Shown piece by piece: positions 35,451-40,664 of a stretch of DNA of 64,000 nt. The translations under genes were made by a program, and so were the position numbers. The stretch's first letter is position 1. Every line of letters begins with the position of its first letter. The DNA is from Candidatus Poribacteria bacterium (GTDB taxonomy: Bacteria > Poribacteria > WGA-4E > WGA-3G): the NCBI GenBank assembly GCA_028824685.1, contig JAPPCZ010000086.1, positions 270,339 to 334,338 of the forward strand, in the 5' to 3' direction. The notes below the pieces were generated by a model, which saw only the letters and a list, made by a program, of their open reading frames with translations, was not told the origin of the DNA and searched no databases.

Positions 35451-35603
35451 CTTTCAGAATTAGAACGATTCATTACATTTTGGACATCTATTTGTGTAGA
35501 TAGAAAACTGCTAACCACCATCATAATAGGCTGATTATCACCGCTGAATTTATGAATTAATCGGTCTTGACAAAACAGAAACCTAAAACTTTGGAGAACA
35601 AAT

Positions 35604-36791
35604 ATGAAATCTTACAGGCAAATCGTAGAGGAGGCAAAAACAGAAATTCCAGAAGTGACCGTTGATGATGTGAAAGAAGATCAGGAAAACGGCAGTGACT
35701 TTGTACTTCTGGATGTTCGCGATGAAGATGAATATCGCGCTGGTTATATCCCTGATGCTGTTCACGTCACACGTGGCATGTTAGAATTTTCCGTTGAAGA
35801 TTACATTCCTGACCGTGACCAAAAGGTAATCGTCTATTGTGCTGCAGGACTCCGTTCACTCCTCGCCGCAAAATCGCTCCGTGAAATGGGATACACAGAC
35901 ACCGTCTCCATGGCGGGTGGATACCGAGATTGGAGTGCCGCCGGTTTTCCAACCGCACAAGACAAAGAGATGTCGCATGAGCAGCTGGACCGCTATAGCA
36001 GACACTTTATGCTCACGGAAGTTGGTGAACGCGGACAGGCAAAACTCCTTGATGCGAAGGTCTTGCTTGTCGGTGCAGGTGGATTAGGTTCGCCTGCAGG
36101 CGTATATCTTGGTGCTGCTGGCATCGGACACCTGGGAATTATAGACTCGGATGTTGTAGAGTTAAGCAACCTACAACGTCAGATTTTACATCGCACAGAA
36201 GCAGTCGGTACACCGAAAGTGCAGTCTGCTACAACGACTATCAAATCGCTTAATCCAGATGTTGAGATTACACCTTACAATCTCCGTCTAACCGCTGACA
36301 ACGTTGAGGAGATTTTCTCGGAATATGACCTGATTGTTGATGGATGTGATAATTTCGCTACCCGTTACCTCGTCAACGATGCCGCAGTGCTTATGAATAA
36401 GCCGGTTGTTCACGGCAGTATTTTCCAGTTTGAAGGACAGGTCACCCTCTTTAAACCGAACGAGGGTCCGTGCTACCGATGCATGTACCCCACACCGCCA
36501 CCGCCGGGCATGGTGCCGAGCTGAAGTGAGGCTGGTGTCCTGGGCGTGCTCCCAGGCGTTATTGGTGTGATGATGGCAACGGAAGCAATTAAATATATCA
36601 TCGGCATCGGTGAACCGCTCATAGGCAGGCTTGTCCTTTATGATGCACTCAGTATGACCTATCGCGAAATGAAAGTTCCGCGAGATGAAAATTGCCCACT
36701 TTGTGGTAAAAACCCGAGCATAACAAAACTAATCGACGACTACGATGCAGCTGCGGAAAATCCTGAAACCTTCGCACCCGCTGCTGATTAG
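35604..36791 (+). CDS. moeB: Rhodanese-MoeB/ThiF adenylyltransferase fusion, probable selenoprotein (UGA at 36522-36524 read as Sec), 395 aa
   Basis: Rhodanese YCAAGLRS; RYSRH, VGAGGLGSP, SNLQRQ, DGCDNF, CYRC; in-frame PPPGMVPS-(TGA)-SEAGVLGVLPGVIG continuing to CPLC and TAG at 36789-36791. Confidence 0.88.
36522..36556 (+). promoter_or_regulatory. Putative bacterial SECIS element
   Basis: TGA, then 14 nt, then stem CCTGGG (36539-44), loop CGTGCT, stem CCCAGG (36551-56); G at loop position 2. Confidence 0.7.
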
Positions 36792-36806
36792 CCGATTAGA
36801 GGGTTT

Positions 36807-36828
36807 GTAGTCGCGCAATTCATTGCGC
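36807..36828 (+). repeat. GTAG-type REP-like palindrome
   Basis: GTAGTC-GCGCAAT-TC-ATTGCGC. Confidence 0.6.
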
Positions 36829-36956
36829 CTCTTACATTCAACATCATTTGGGTTTCAAATGTTACAAAGCCTCAAATGCTATATTGTTTTCAGTATTGGT
36901 ATTATTCTGAATCGCGGATTATATGGATTTCACAGATTACGCTGATTTTGTGGTGA

Positions 36957-38300
36957 ATGAAAATGATTACACATATACGAATGAAAAACTTCAAGTCATG
37001 GGCAGATAGCGGCAAGGTCGAACTTGCGGTGCTGACAGGCTTTTTTGGGACAAATAGTTCTGGGAAGAGTAGTCTGCTACAAATGCTGCTGTTACTTAAG
37101 CAAACTGCGGAGCGGAAGGATGCGGAAGAAGTTATTTTCTTTGGTGATAATAACTCTCATGTGTCTTATGTGAATCTCGGAGATTTCGGTGAAGTGATAC
37201 ATGGGCATAATACGGAAGAATCACTTGAGTTGGGTTTTGGATGTAAACTCCAAGAACTTTCGGATATCCGCGTCCCACTAAAATCGAATAGGAGCAATAA
37301 TACTCGCTATGTGTCGGATGGTATTGATAGTTTTAACTTTAAAACCATTATAAAGGAAAATGAAGGAAAACTCTATATTGATGACTTTAGTTACCGTTCA
37401 TCTAATTTCACTTTGGAAAAAGATCCGTACAACATGCATGTTTACCTGAATAATAGTGTAATAGGAAATATAACAGAAATAAAAAATTGCTATGGAGTGC
37501 CTGCCTCTGAGGAAAGTGGACTTGGGAAAATTTTGCAACAGTTCTCCTCTTTGTTTGGAAAACTATTCGATCATGTATACTATCTCGGTCCGACTCGAGT
37601 GAATTCACAAAGACTCTATCAATGGGAAGGCAGGCATCCTGGGCACGCCGGACAATGGGGAAATCAAACCATTGACGCGCTTCTCTCAGCACGCGTGAGA
37701 AATTTAAAAACATCACATGAAAAAGAAGGTATCCCAATTGAGCAAAGTATTTCAGATTGGCTGCAAAAGATGGATCTGGCGCATTCGTTTTCGCTTGATT
37801 GGACAAAGGGAGCAACCTACGAAGTTCGCATCCAAAAAACACCCTCCAGTCCACCAGTAACATTAGTTGACATGGGTTATGGCTTATCTCAATTCTTGCC
37901 AGTGTTAGTTCTTTGTTACTATGCACCAGAGGGTTCAACTTTGATTTTAGAACAACCCGGTATTCACCTTCATCCAATGGTTCAATCCCAGCTCGCAGAT
38001 CTTCTGATAGAGGTAGTCAACGAACGGAAACTGCAGATTTTGGTAGAAAGCCATAGCGAACATCTGTTAACGCGTCTCCAAAGACGAATCGCAGAAAAAC
38101 AAATTCCTGAAGAAAACGTTGCCCTCTATTTTTGTCGTAATAATGATGGTGCTTCCACGATTGAAAAGTTAGAAGTAGACGAAGAGTCCGGGGACATTAA
38201 GAATTGGCCTGAAAACTTCTTCGGTGATGTGATGGGGGATATGTTTGCAATGACAGACAAACAGACTGAAACCATTGCAGAAACGGAACCGGAGGGTTAA
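36957..38300 (+). CDS. ABC-type (AAA_15/AAA_21) ATPase with DUF3696-like C-terminus, copy 1
   Basis: NFKSW, Walker A GTNSSGKSS, signature-like DMGYGLSQ, LILEQPGIHLHP, VESHSEH, C-terminal NWPENFFG. Confidence 0.85.
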   Translation: MKMITHIRMKNFKSWADSGKVELAVLTGFFGTNSSGKSSLLQMLLLLKQTAERKDAEEVIFFGDNNSHVSYVNLGDFGEVIHGHNTEESLELGFGCKLQELSDIRVPLKSNRSNNTRYVSDGIDSFNFKTIIKENEGKLYIDDFSYRSSNFTLEKDPYNMHVYLNNSVIGNITEIKNCYGVPASEESGLGKILQQFSSLFGKLFDHVYYLGPTRVNSQRLYQWEGRHPGHAGQWGNQTIDALLSARVRNLKTSHEKEGIPIEQSISDWLQKMDLAHSFSLDWTKGATYEVRIQKTPSSPPVTLVDMGYGLSQFLPVLVLCYYAPEGSTLILEQPGIHLHPMVQSQLADLLIEVVNERKLQILVESHSEHLLTRLQRRIAEKQIPEENVALYFCRNNDGASTIEKLEVDEESGDIKNWPENFFGDVMGDMFAMTDKQTETIAETEPEG

Positions 38301-38818
38301 TGGACGCAGTTGTAATTGATACGAACGTTTTGGTAGTCGCAAATGGCAAGGCTGCCGCGCCGCAGGCATCCAAAAAATGCATCACACTTTGCAGGGCAAG
38401 ACTTGCTGAAATACTCAGAGGTACCGAGAGAGTGTTACTTGATGACAAAAAACGTATAATTCGAGAGTACAGAAATAACTTGAATGAAAAAGGACGTGGA
38501 TTTGGTGACCGTTTCTGGCTGGAATTGAAGAGAAGATATTATAATCCGGAAGATTATCCTGAAACGGTTATCGCTGTTCAAATTACACCATTAGAAGGAA
38601 ACGGTACCGAATTTGAAGAATTTCCTAACAATGACGCGGCACTAAGCGATTTTCATAAAAAAGATAAAAAATTTGTTGCTGTTGCGCTTGCGTATCAAAG
38701 TGTTGCTGAAAAACAAGCCCCTATTCTAAAAGCAGAGGATAGTGGTTGGGAGGAATTTAGAGCTGCGCTTGCTGCCCACGGTGTGCAAGTTGATTCCATC
38801 TGTGAAGACGACATTTAA
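38300..38818 (+). CDS. PIN-domain protein, copy 1
   Basis: VVIDTNVL PIN N-terminus plus conserved acidic residues (EY, DKKFVAVA, DSGW); translationally coupled to the ATPase. Confidence 0.75.
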   Translation: MDAVVIDTNVLVVANGKAAAPQASKKCITLCRARLAEILRGTERVLLDDKKRIIREYRNNLNEKGRGFGDRFWLELKRRYYNPEDYPETVIAVQITPLEGNGTEFEEFPNNDAALSDFHKKDKKFVAVALAYQSVAEKQAPILKAEDSGWEEFRAALAAHGVQVDSICEDDI

Positions 38819-38844
38819 CGTCCATATCAAGAAAGAAAAGAAGT

Positions 38845-40167
38845 ATGATTACACATATACGAGTTCAAAACTTCAAGTCGTGGGAAGATAGTGGCTATAT
38901 TAAATTTGGACCGCTAACAGGCTTTTTCGGGACGAATAGTTCCGGAAAGAGTAGTTTGTTACAAATGCTGCTGCTTCTTAAGCAAACGACGGAATATAAA
39001 GATACTGAAGATGTTATCTTTTTTGGAGATGAAACTTCCTATGTAAATCTTGGTAATTTCCGTGAAGTGATCCATGCACACAGAATGATAGCACCGCTTG
39101 TATTTGAGCTTCAATGTCAACTTACCCACCCTCGCTCTCTCATCAAAATTTCTGAAGATGGTTCTCCGTGGGAGCAGAAAGTAGAGAAATTCGCTTATGA
39201 AAGTGTAATTCAAGTTGAAAATAGAGAATTAATCGTGGGAAAACTCAGTTACGGGGCTTCCCTCAATGGGGTTGCGGAAATAGTATGTAGTGAGGGACAG
39301 GCATCATTTCGCAATACGTATGGTGAAGAATCTATTCTAAAACTGGAAAATTGTTACGGCATACGATCAACTGGGGAAACCGAAGTTGAAAAGTTTCTAA
39401 GGAAATACTCATCTGCATTTGAAGAGTTGTTTACGTACGTTTTCTATCTTGGTCCAACCCGTTCACATCCAAAACGTCAGTATCACTGGGAAGGTAGTCA
39501 TCCCGCAGATATTGGACATTGGGGTGACAAAATGATTGATGCTCTCCTCTCTGCCCGTGTAGATTTAAAGACAATTCAGTGCGATGAAGTAAATATCTCA
39601 ATTGAGGAAAAGATCTCAGAATGGCTACGAGAGATGGAGCTTGCCTATTCCTTTTTGCTTGAACGGATTGAAACGAGAGATGGAAAAGATTATGATGTTA
39701 GAATTCAAACGAAAGAGTATGGATCAAAAATAGCACTTGCAGACATGGGGTATGGATTGTCACAGTTTCTGCCTGTTCTTGTTCTCTGTTACTATGCACC
39801 AGAGGGTTCAACCTTAATTTTGGAGCAACCCGGTATCCACCTCCACCCAATGGTTCAATCCCAACTCGCGGATCTTTTGATTGAGGTCGTCAACGAACGG
39901 AAACTCCAGATTTTGGTAGAAAGCCATAGCGAACATTTCTTAACTCGTTTACAACGAAGAATTGCTGAAGAAAAAATTGCTGCAGATCAAACCGCCCTCT
40001 ATTTTTGTCGGAATGATAACGGCGTTTCTAACATTGAACAGTTGAAAGTAGATGAATTCGGTAACATTGAAAACTGGCCAGAAAACTTTTTTGGTAACGA
40101 GATGGGGGACCTATTCGCAATGACTGATGCGCAAAGTGAACGTCAGAAGAGAGCGGAGGGTGAATGA
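38845..40167 (+). CDS. ABC-type ATPase with DUF3696-like C-terminus, copy 2
   Basis: Same motifs as copy 1, with a divergent central insert. Confidence 0.85.
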   Translation: MITHIRVQNFKSWEDSGYIKFGPLTGFFGTNSSGKSSLLQMLLLLKQTTEYKDTEDVIFFGDETSYVNLGNFREVIHAHRMIAPLVFELQCQLTHPRSLIKISEDGSPWEQKVEKFAYESVIQVENRELIVGKLSYGASLNGVAEIVCSEGQASFRNTYGEESILKLENCYGIRSTGETEVEKFLRKYSSAFEELFTYVFYLGPTRSHPKRQYHWEGSHPADIGHWGDKMIDALLSARVDLKTIQCDEVNISIEEKISEWLREMELAYSFLLERIETRDGKDYDVRIQTKEYGSKIALADMGYGLSQFLPVLVLCYYAPEGSTLILEQPGIHLHPMVQSQLADLLIEVVNERKLQILVESHSEHFLTRLQRRIAEEKIAADQTALYFCRNDNGVSNIEQLKVDEFGNIENWPENFFGNEMGDLFAMTDAQSERQKRAEGE

Positions 40168-40664
40168 ACGCTGTTATTGTAGATACGAACGTAATCGTCA
40201 TTGCCAACGATACAGATGATAAACGTGCAGATTGTAGAGACCTTTGTCAAGATCGCCTTCATCAGATTATCTCTCGTCGTGAAAAAGTGGTTATTGACAA
40301 CAATTGGCGAATCCTTAAGGAGTACGAGCGCAATACAAAACCTAACACTCGAAAAGGGATAGGCGATGTGTTTGTGAAAACGCTACTGCGAAATCAGAAA
40401 AACGCAAATTTTTGTGCAATGGTGCATATCACTCCGCTAGCTGGAAATGGCACTGAATTTAAAGAGTTTCCAACTGACAACGCATTACGTGGCTTTGACC
40501 CTGATGATAGGAAATTTATTGCCGTTGCAATTGCGCATCAGGCACAATTTGGGCAAACAGCAACTATTTTATTGGCAATAGATAGTGGTTGGACAAATTA
40601 TATAACCGCGCTTGCAGCACATAGCGTTGACATTCATTCTATCTGTGAAGAGGACACTTCCTGA
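40164..40664 (+). CDS. PIN-domain protein, copy 2
   Basis: VIVDTNVI, DDRKFIAVA, IDSGW; ATGA overlap with ATPase copy 2. Confidence 0.75.
   Translation: MNAVIVDTNVIVIANDTDDKRADCRDLCQDRLHQIISRREKVVIDNNWRILKEYERNTKPNTRKGIGDVFVKTLLRNQKNANFCAMVHITPLAGNGTEFKEFPTDNALRGFDPDDRKFIAVAIAHQAQFGQTATILLAIDSGWTNYITALAAHSVDIHSICEEDTS

Follow-up and report, generated by a model that had tools for sequence, protein, structure and literature searches.

The window, by which we mean the whole 64,000-nucleotide stretch of Candidatus Poribacteria DNA that was analysed, contains on its forward strand a gene for a rhodanese-MoeB protein with one in-frame TGA (Table 1). The open reading frames at 35604..36524 and 36546..36791 share a frame and, on translation, their sole interruption is this TGA, within PPPGMVPS-TGA-SEAGVLGVLPG. 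The original prediction was that both frames form one hidden selenoprotein gene, with a second zinc-binding pair (CPLC) beyond the TGA and a hairpin shortly after it, and everything that it had observed in the sequence was confirmed, including the position of CPLC 3′ of the TGA.

Table 1. Features of the rhodanese-MoeB locus, in positions of the window.
Feature	Position	Strand	Details
GGAG, likely ribosome-binding site	35593..35596	+	7 nt 5′ of the ATG; suggested by reading of the sequence alone
Whole gene, putative rhodanese-MoeB selenoprotein	35604..36791	+	395 codons; ATG at 35604, in-frame TGA, TAG at 36789-36791 (translation)
Rhodanese domain	35658..35942	+	Residues 19-113; Pfam PF00581, E 2.5e-19
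Cys79 codon	35838..35840	+	Rhodanese active-site loop C-A-A-G-L-R-S (translation)
ThiF/MoeB adenylation domain	35994..36698	+	Residues 131-365, spans the TGA; Pfam PF00899, E 7e-87
First zinc pair, CYRC	36471..36482	+	Cys290/Cys293; aligns to CYRC of MoeB (cysteines counted as 172, 175)
TGA, predicted to be read as selenocysteine	36522..36524	+	Residue 307, position of the E1 crossover-loop cysteine (alignment, conservation)
Candidate SECIS-type hairpin	36539..36556	+	18 nt; 6-bp stem CCUGGG/CCCAGG, loop CGUGCU; UGA-to-loop distance 20 nt
Second zinc pair, CPLC	36693..36704	+	Cys364/Cys367; in the alignment matches CEVC, the C-terminal motif of E. coli MoeB

Translated through the TGA, the protein scores 542.5 bits against the NCBIfam MoeB equivalog NF006444 (cut-off 449), a match that runs across the TGA from residue 5 to residue 384. 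The PF00899 match takes in profile positions 1-237 of 238, and the adenylation domain aligns with residues 3-249 of E. coli MoeB (1jw9). Besides the curated score, the nucleotide-binding glycine loop and the four zinc cysteines of an E1-like MoeB/ThiF enzyme of the NF006444 type are all present: G157, G159, G162, D181, C290 and C293 are unchanged in 41/41 orthologues, and positions 364 and 367 are Cys in 39/41. The C-x4-R loop of an active rhodanese is equally intact, Cys79, Arg84 and Ser85 being unchanged in all 41, and the domain search leaves a gap of only about 10-15 residues between the rhodanese and adenylation domains. Membership of the MoeZ family (NF005902) was rejected, the score being 399.5 bits against a cut-off of 647 and the rhodanese domain being N-terminal.

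Conservation of the TGA codon and of the frame beyond it

The TGA was found at the identical codon in 41/41 related genomes, compared codon by codon and drawn from 4 families and 8 genera, the most distant at 61% identity. Across the phylum, 153 of the 176 genomes searched gave a match, and all 150 rows among the matches listed carry one TGA. In the alignment the codon occupies the position of E. coli MoeB Cys187, as had been proposed, and also aligns with the thioester cysteine of Uba4 (SCGEAG). The anticipated alternation of TGA with TGC or TGT was borne out, other phyla having mostly TGC/TGT. Cys codons occupy the site in 20/20 paralogues, in 5/5 orthologues from Binatia, Myxococcales and Syntrophobacterales, in 27/28 parsed loci of a second phylum and in 70/80 metagenome relatives, whilst the best 120 database matches include 88 full-length proteins, 87 with Cys and one with Arg at the site. 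The locus therefore shows the Sec/Cys pairing expected of a bacterial selenoprotein gene.

Moreover, the region after the TGA is not decaying. The majority-residue fraction there is 0.834, against 0.865 upstream (41 genomes), and the 88 codons that follow the TGA resemble the remainder of the gene in their conservation. Their frame is open in 41/41 genomes and conserved in the manner of coding sequence; synonymous changes account for 0.42-0.67 of the changed codons in relatives. An erroneous TGA in place of TGC or TGT, arising in sequencing or assembly, which the original prediction had named as a danger, is refuted by the presence of TGA in all 41 independent assemblies, many of them single-contig, and by a 685-base contig from an independent DNA run of a different study, which covers 36053-36737 with 0 differences and contains the TGA; we give such an error practically no weight. 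Contigs from RNA libraries, in which DNA carry-over is possible, lie on either side of the TGA, at 35468-35635 and 36534-36616 amongst others, with none over 36156-36533 and none bridging the codon.

Almost every genome of one order of sponge-associated Poribacteria has the rhodanese-MoeB Sec gene; in five genomes of sister orders, a rhodanese-MoeB query found only a rhodanese-less type. Three Sec lineages with an unresolved backbone were recovered both by FastTree (128 rows) and by a quick IQ-TREE run (53 rows, the careful search being unfinished). A single Sec clade was not rejected by the AU test on 36 rows (p = 0.344).

Selenocysteine machinery and the downstream hairpin

The genome contains selA, selB, selC and selD, all above curated cut-offs, as the original prediction called for (selA 609 bits, selB 351 bits, tRNA-Sec 78 bits), and the tRNA-Sec gene adjoins selB. 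selA was also found in 39/41 genomes with the TGA form, as well as in the genome from the other phylum that has a Sec form.

The hairpin begins 14 nt past the TGA, as described, with CCTGGG (36539-36544) facing CCCAGG (36551-36556) across a CGTGCT loop (36545-36550). Constraints on bacterial SECIS elements are given in a recent review as a loop of 3-9 nt, a stem of 4-16 bp, a G in the first two loop positions, a spacing of 16-37 nt and a minimum free energy of -7.5 kcal/mol or lower (PMC13188914). The hairpin falls within all of these, folding at -9.2 kcal/mol in isolation. In our own implementation the constraints were passed by 45/52 Sec forms versus 28/122 Cys forms. The strict energy cut-off for a qualifying hairpin was missed by 7/41 Poribacteria Sec forms, and when the canonical 6-bp hairpin was taken alone 8/41 fell below par (-5.7 to -6.9 kcal/mol). 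As a single sequence, the fold of 36516-36585 is unremarkable (z = -1.35, with 19/200 shuffles folding as well), and the significance of the hairpin comes from comparison with relatives. With Rfam at gathering thresholds, no match was obtained anywhere in the window.

This comparison shows selection beyond that on the protein. The lowest synonymous entropy in the gene lies at the hairpin, the six lowest of 135 windows starting at residues 310-315. In 20 genomes that carry both genes, the number of synonymous codons seen at the five hairpin positions is 1, 1, 1, 1 and 2 for the Sec gene but 2, 2, 4, 5 and 3 for the Cys paralogue, which encodes the same peptide and whose synonymous sites vary freely there. 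In the 41 Poribacteria, hairpin cells are 98.1% paired, compared with at most 67.6% when the hairpin is slid. Covariation of the stem, which the original prediction had proposed as a check, was a different matter: the synonymous sites are frozen and the changes that do occur preserve wobble pairing, but covariation within Poribacteria is absent, 0 stem pairs having changed on both sides among the 41 hairpins (shuffles were uninformative). The Poribacteria hairpin is therefore supported by conservation, not by covariation. RNAalifold adds weak outer pairs only. Sec forms of other lineages carry a hairpin at equal distance, with differing loops whose second base is G, and one Sec form has an outer G-C pair in place of C-G, a compensatory change across lineages.

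The conserved peptide LGVLPG by itself encodes CUGGG...CCNGG, and it is for this reason that 28 of the Cys forms also pass the constraints. Among metagenome Cys forms, 29/70 give a fold as stable as that of the weakest Sec form, or more so. The hairpin is thus partly pre-encoded by the peptide, which is a new point, and such a latent hairpin would be a simple, testable reason for Sec conversion at the site of residue 307.

Decoding of the UGA and the role of residue 307

Judged from its sequence, this is a real selenoprotein gene, one intact gene, and UGA-307 is almost certainly decoded as selenocysteine. The mRNA hairpin would act as a bacterial SECIS element, and SelB with Sec-tRNA(Sec) would decode the UGA, incorporating selenium into a 395-residue enzyme. 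If the TGA were instead a true stop, the gene would yield a 306-residue fragment and perhaps, from the GTG at 36546, an independent product of 81 residues, or be a pseudogene. Public gene calls agree with this, 32 of the best 120 database matches being 306-307 residues long and ending VPS or VPG, and a degree of termination at the UGA is to be expected of every selenoprotein gene. However, a product ending at residue 306 would be without the C-terminal third of its ThiF domain and without the second zinc pair. The 3′ frame is open and conserved at all distances compared, down to 61% identity, and a true stop would not explain why the genome has Sec machinery or why the hairpin is frozen. We regard a true stop as extremely improbable. 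Read-through of another kind, by genome-wide UGA reassignment or by near-cognate suppression inserting Trp, Cys or Arg, is also very unlikely. Such read-through would accommodate the database homologue of 396 residues that bears Arg at the site, but homologues otherwise pair with Cys there, as expected of a Sec/Cys pair, and a hairpin at SECIS distance is under selection. Moreover, selA and selB are without internal stops and selD carries a single internal TGA of its own, which speaks against reassignment.

In general function, the protein very probably belongs, on its sequence, with the MoeB/MoeZ/Uba4-type enzymes that activate sulfur-carrier proteins. We propose that the substrate of the MoeB domain is a ThiS/MoaD-fold carrier, whose C-terminal glycine it adenylates, and that a persulfide on rhodanese Cys79 turns the activated carrier into a thiocarboxylate, which would serve molybdopterin and probably cysteine synthesis. 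Sec307, in place of the crossover-loop cysteine, would attack the acyl-adenylate, and the resulting acyl-selenoester with the carrier would then be resolved by the Cys79 persulfide. We consider this explanation as a whole, from SECIS-directed Sec and carrier activation to the Cys79 persulfide and the Sec307 acyl-selenoester, to be probable. For the selenoester mechanism specifically the chances appear about even; it is the likeliest route because of the analogy with Uba4, in which the crossover-loop cysteine takes up Urm1 as a thioester, the target of the rhodanese persulfide, and this thioester is reported to be essential. Solved structures of homologues show a flexible crossover loop.

Which carrier the enzyme serves is inferred, as is the selenoester step. 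The genome has four ThiS-family genes, with MoaD, a CysO/SAMP-like protein and ThiS as candidate carriers, and also a MoaD-MoaE and a CysM-like/PAPS reductase/ThiS-like/JAB cluster. No linkage of ThiS-family genes to the rhodanese-MoeB gene was found in the window or at the paralogue locus, nor any conserved operon partner among the neighbours in the window, those of the paralogue, the locus of family-f3 Poribacteria or the Cys-form locus of Binatia.

The original prediction had reasoned that Sec at this site implies a residue of catalytic importance in sulfur or selenium transfer, working with the Cys of the rhodanese domain. Homology to Uba4 supports a catalytic role, with the qualification that E. 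coli MoeB/MoaD is described as following an acyl-persulfide route without a thioester; a role in selenium transfer found no support. Substitution of Cys187 in E. coli MoeB is also tolerated, and the crossover-loop residue is therefore not catalytic in every family member. With this qualification and that on covariation, the earlier interpretation is supported. Alternatively, Sec307 may be a resolving residue. The persulfide would then attack the acyl-adenylate directly, as in the bacterial MoeB/ThiF type, to give an acyl-disulfide, which Sec307 would attack in turn, freeing the thiocarboxylate and leaving an easily reduced Se-S bond with Cys79. The acyl-persulfide route of bacterial MoeB/MoaD is consistent with this, as is the published ThiF-ThiS acyldisulfide. 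For Uba4 Cys202, moreover, a part in the resolution or reversal of reactive intermediates during oxidative stress has been described. The ThiF residue concerned is presumably Cys184, homologous to the position of residue 307. The rhodanese domain in the same chain, however, is shared with Uba4, where the thioester is reported to be essential, and we consider a purely resolving Sec307 possible but rather unlikely.

Returning to Sec307 as the nucleophile, a broader and tentative proposal is that sponge Poribacteria carry out central sulfur-carrier activation with a natural E1-type enzyme whose catalytic nucleophile, Sec, would be joined to ubiquitin-fold carriers through an acyl-selenoester. A change from Cys to Sec, perhaps repeated, may have been possible because VLGVLPG already encodes a near-SECIS hairpin, suitably spaced from the catalytic codon. 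To our knowledge, acyl-selenoester chemistry has not been described for any E1-like enzyme. The catalytic role of the crossover-loop cysteine in bacterial MoeB-type enzymes is unsettled, being essential in Uba4 and described as unused in E. coli MoeB, and retention of the costly Sec at that residue in at least 150 genomes would, if the genes are read as here, be strong natural evidence that the residue takes part in the chemistry of rhodanese-fused enzymes. The Sec gene, the Cys paralogue from the same genome and the Cys orthologues form a ready experimental set. SelA and SelB are reported to be enriched in sponge-symbiont genomes; if Sec307 is indeed a nucleophile, this near-universal gene would be one concrete client explaining that enrichment.

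Relation to known systems

The gene is probably a member of the MoeB selenoprotein family that Zhang, Fomenko and Gladyshev predicted from marine metagenomes in 2005 (PMC1088965). MoeB selenoproteins recur in the GOS analysis of 2008, where they were assigned to pfam05237 (PMC2398784), and are listed under 'Predicted' in a 2022 review (PMC9312934) and again in a 2026 review (PMC13188914). The original prediction's mention of an uncharacterised Sec-MoeB from marine metagenomes was thus right, and in the accessible text of these sources no functional data on these proteins were found. As described in that text, the predicted proteins resemble the Poribacteria gene in belonging to the MoeB/ThiF family, with an in-frame UGA, Cys homologues and a bacterial SECIS-like hairpin; the text compared does not state the Sec position or an N-terminal rhodanese domain. 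We take pfam05237 to be the region after the adenylation core. The Poribacteria gene differs in its source, which is sponge-associated, and in being nearly universal in one order. In public collections it appears as a 306-residue "ThiF family adenylyltransferase", and metabolic reconstructions of sponge symbionts therefore carry a truncated form of a key Mo-cofactor/sulfur-carrier enzyme. Whilst the MoeB Sec family itself was known, the core status of the gene in sponge Poribacteria and this truncated annotation are new, together with the peptide-encoded hairpin.

Amongst characterised enzymes, E. coli MoeB (PDB 1JW9) and ThiF match the adenylation domain at about 200 bits and share its zinc cysteines, but are without a rhodanese domain. 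The Cys forms of NF006444 (PRK08762) have the same N-terminal rhodanese-MoeB architecture and match over the full length, with Cys-form orthologues in other phyla at 56-67% identity; they differ from the Poribacteria enzyme in that the latter would have Sec at the crossover-loop position. Mycobacterial MoeZR is likewise a bacterial MoeB-rhodanese fusion, with the domain order reversed (a C-terminal rhodanese) and Cys rather than Sec, and is reported to sulfurate both MoaD and CysO. Lastly, Uba4/MOCS3, the eukaryotic activating enzyme of Urm1 and MOCS2A, also joins an E1-like adenylation domain and a rhodanese in one chain. Its rhodanese is C-terminal on a flexible linker, whereas that of the Poribacteria enzyme is N-terminal with a short spacer, and by analogy the Poribacteria nucleophile would be Sec and its carriers bacterial.

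The rhodanese-MoeB gene and its in-frame TGA

The rhodanese-MoeB gene in the window is a real and highly conserved selenoprotein gene. Translation confirmed that its two ORFs lie in the same frame with only the TGA at residue 307 between them, as the original prediction had it. With the TGA read as U, the product is 395 residues long and matches NCBIfam NF006444 (equivalog, MoeB with an N-terminal rhodanese) at 542.5 bits over residues 5-384, against a cut-off of 449.

Features of the rhodanese-MoeB gene and its 3′ flank (window positions unless given as residues)
Feature	Position	Strand	Remarks
First part of frame	35604-36524	+	
In-frame TGA	36522-36524	+	sole interruption of the frame
Second part of frame	36546-36791	+	
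Stop codon TAG	36789-36791	+	
Rhodanese domain	residues 19-113	+	Pfam
ThiF domain	residues 131-365	+	Pfam; profile positions 1-237 of 238; crosses the TGA uninterrupted
Hairpin, stem CCTGGG/CCCAGG, loop CGTGCT	36539-36544/36551-36556	+	begins 14 nt past the TGA
GCGCAAT..ATTGCGC element	36803-36840		~37 nt; ~12 nt past the stop codon
GCGCAAT..ATTGCGC element	36906-36949		
GCGCAAT..ATTGCGC element	36959-36994		
Two AAA_15/AAA_21/DUF3696 ATPase genes with small ORFs	36957-40664		directly 3′ of the gene

Forty-one genomes from 8 genera and 4 families of one order were searched in six frames. The gene was found in all 41, at identities from 100% down to 61% and with exactly one TGA each, and the TGA occupied the identical codon in every extracted locus (30/30 and 11/11). 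Phylum-wide, 153 of 176 genomes matched at E <= 1e-120, including 152/158 genomes in the order and 0/17 in other families; each row among the 150 of the 153 matches that were listed contained one TGA. In five of the more complete sister-order genomes, this query matched only rhodanese-less MoeB.

Among the observations that the original prediction had named as speaking against it were reads with TGC or TGT at the site and decay beyond the TGA in relatives. A 685-base contig from another study's independent DNA run spans 36053-36737 with 0 differences and therefore excludes a sequencing error at the TGA. Beyond the TGA, conservation resembles that before it: majority residues make up a fraction of 0.834 over residues 308-380 vs 0.865 over residues 1-306, and the synonymous share of changed codons is 0.42-0.67 downstream vs 0.49-0.83 upstream. 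Invariant in 41/41 genomes are Cys79, Arg84 and Ser85 of the rhodanese loop, the glycine loop, Asp181, Cys290 and Cys293, with Cys364 and Cys367 retained in 39/41. Judged from this conservation, the part downstream of the TGA is functional.

The inverted-repeat element that follows the stop codon is dispersed over the genome's contigs (40 scored matches of 73 candidates), and many loose-ended contigs pile up at it in all four sequencing runs; it resembles a REP-type intergenic element or a terminator. A small ORF follows each of the two consecutive ATPase genes, and the second of these ORFs has a PIN domain; the stretch looks like a defence-type island.

Sec machinery and Sec/Cys alternation

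Candidatus Poribacteria are sponge symbionts. The Sec machinery that the original prediction had proposed to look for was found complete: the window's own 5.4-Mb assembly carries selA (609 bits), selB (351 bits) with tRNA-Sec (78 bits) directly adjoining it, and selD (G000:C57:3570-4496), which has a single in-frame TGA and is likely itself a selenoprotein. Since neither selA nor selB is interrupted by a stop, UGA has not undergone general reassignment in this genome. Among the TGA-form genomes, 39/41 had selA above cut-off, the two exceptions being assemblies of 140 and 300 contigs. In two relatives selA sits upstream of the Sec-MoeB gene in divergent orientation, at a distance of 550-640 nt (G009:C1:2822091-2825177, G015:C104:5293-8471); in the window's genome the two are on separate contigs. 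One paper has SelA and SelB co-occurring in most sponge-symbiont bins, and another source places Poribacteria among the phyla with Sec hydrogenases.

The anticipated alternation of TGA with Cys codons was also observed. All sampled Poribacteria genomes additionally carry a rhodanese-less paralogue (~63% identity over the MoeB domain), which has TGC or TGT at the site, 10 each, in 20/20 fetched copies. Full rhodanese-MoeB orthologues in Binatia, Myxococcales and Syntrophobacterales records have TGC (5/5), and a record labelled Nitrospinota has TGA. In the phylum of the latter genome the orthologue occurs in 45/51 genomes and the stop in that genome alone; 30 fetched loci gave 27 Cys codons, 1 TGA and 2 that were not parsed. 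Eighty metagenome relatives of this second Sec form comprised 10 with TGA and 70 with Cys codons.

In P0093, a full-length metagenome protein of 396 aa, Arg takes the place of Cys or Sec (VPSRSEVG); its codon may differ from TGA or TGC by one base, or the residue may reflect a variant or an error. Short free-standing rhodanese matches, each interrupted by a single in-frame TGA, recur in several relatives (e.g. G006:C1:343603-343944, G012:C123:182841-183182) and may be rhodanese selenoproteins. At a Binatia locus (L167:5539-7131), 1.4 kb separates a Cys-form rhodanese-MoeB from a ThiI gene downstream of it.

The Poribacteria Sec genes group in a single clade with strong support. Its branching mostly agrees with the genome families, a pattern compatible with vertical inheritance within the order. 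In a 128-row tree with an unresolved backbone, Sec forms fall in three lineages and require at least 3 changes; a single Sec clade was not rejected in a 36-row AU test (p = 0.344).

The hairpin downstream of the TGA

The predicted hairpin was found with the stem, loop and offset originally described, and it lies within the bacterial SECIS consensus as given in PMC13188914 (loop 3-9 nt, stem 4-16 bp, G in the first two loop positions, UGA-to-loop 16-37 nt, MFE <= -7.5 kcal/mol): its stem has 6 bp, its loop is CGUGCU, the UGA-to-loop distance is 20 nt and the energy -9.2 kcal/mol. Folded alone the stretch is not unusual (z = -1.35), and Rfam gave no match anywhere in the window.

Across the whole gene, the six lowest of 135 seven-codon windows in synonymous entropy start at residues 310-315 (0.16-0.30 vs a median of 0.77). 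The Cys paralogue encodes nearly the same peptide here; across the same 20 genomes, the numbers of synonymous codons seen at the five hairpin positions were 1, 1, 1, 1 and 2 for the Sec gene vs 2, 2, 4, 5 and 3 for the paralogue. Stem cells are paired in 98.1% of cases vs at most 67.6% with partners slid, and the sole stem variants are G·U-preserving transitions and four unpaired cells. Stem covariation had been anticipated, but no pair has changed on both sides; what stands is strong comparative support for the putative hairpin from conservation.

Other Sec lineages have hairpins at the same distance, namely CCUGGG[GGUCCU]CCCGGG, CCUGGG[AGUUUUG]CCCGGG (nine loci) and GCUGGG[GGUCCUG]CCCGGC; the second loop base is G in all, and the outer pair is G-C in the last and C-G in the others. 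Cys forms often form 5-6 bp stems because the codons for the conserved LGVLPG peptide alone give CUGGG...CCNGG. Our implementation of the consensus passes 45/52 Sec forms and also 28/122 Cys forms, and in 29/70 metagenome Cys forms the fold is no weaker than in the poorest Sec form. The seven failing Poribacteria Sec forms miss narrowly, on hairpin energy. Scored alone, the canonical 6-bp hairpin falls short in eight (-5.7 to -6.9 kcal/mol), one of which, locus L031, passes via an alternative 5-bp hairpin.

Predicted role of residue 307 and known systems

In alignments with solved structures, residue 307 matches the Cys of LTCVEAG in E. coli MoeB (Cys187, counted from the alignment, with CYRC cysteines 172 and 175) and the Cys of SCGEAG in Chaetomium Uba4. 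According to published work, thiocarboxylation by Uba4 requires a thioester between Urm1 and the crossover-loop cysteine (Cys225 in yeast, Cys202 in Chaetomium), and the fused rhodanese domain's persulfide attacks this thioester; the E. coli MoeB/MoaD system is described there as lacking one.

We infer the catalytic chemistry of Sec307 as follows. The MoeB domain would adenylate the C-terminal glycine of a carrier, Sec307 on the mobile crossover loop would accept the acyl group as a selenoester, and the Cys79 persulfide would then attack to release the thiocarboxylate. By analogy this selenoester route is the most likely mechanism, and we would give it an even chance of being correct. Compared with thiolates, selenolates are stronger nucleophiles, leave more readily and are easier to restore once oxidised, properties that would suit an aerobic sponge habitat. 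A resolving role, with Sec attacking an acyl-disulfide and making an Se-S bond with Cys79, is a less likely alternative that fits the sequence data equally well.

Only two MoeB-type enzymes occur in the window's genome. Its carrier genes include a MoaD adjoining MoaE, ThiO-ThiS and a fourth ThiS-like gene, and no conserved neighbour indicating a carrier was found at the window, the paralogue, a family-f3 Poribacteria locus or the Binatia Cys-form locus. A cluster elsewhere in the genome (L175, G000:C72:51457-54717) encodes a PALP enzyme, a PAPS reductase, a ThiS-like carrier with best NCBIfam matches, below cut-off, to SAMP1 and archaeal MoaD, and a JAB-NIL protein. The cluster is similar to the CysO/CysM/Mec pathway and may be served by the Sec enzyme. 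In mycobacteria the MoeB-rhodanese fusion MoeZR is reported to sulfurate MoaD and CysO alike.

Public protein collections misrepresent the Poribacteria gene through truncated products: 32 of the best 120 matches stop after 306-307 residues, at VPS or VPG, under names such as "ThiF family adenylyltransferase" (one NCBI entry) and "molybdopterin/thiamine biosynthesis adenylyltransferase" (JGI). The remaining 88 are full-length, with Cys (87) or Arg (1) at the site. Literature searches for Poribacteria with selenocysteine or selenoprotein, and for MoeB with both terms, returned no paper describing the gene in Poribacteria. The original prediction's mention of Sec-MoeB in marine metagenomes was well founded: "Molybdopterin biosynthesis MoeB protein" was introduced as a selenoprotein family with 11 Sargasso Sea sequences (PMC1088965), reappeared in GOS (19 sequences, pfam05237, PMC2398784) and is listed in reviews of 2022, as "Predicted", and 2026 (PMC9312934, PMC13188914). 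The Sec site is likely the same as in that family, compared here through text that gives neither Sec position nor architecture. The interest of the gene lies in Sec at a putative catalytic position, in a core gene of a major sponge-symbiont group, and in its systematic mis-annotation; it is a new, well-documented member of the family predicted in 2005.
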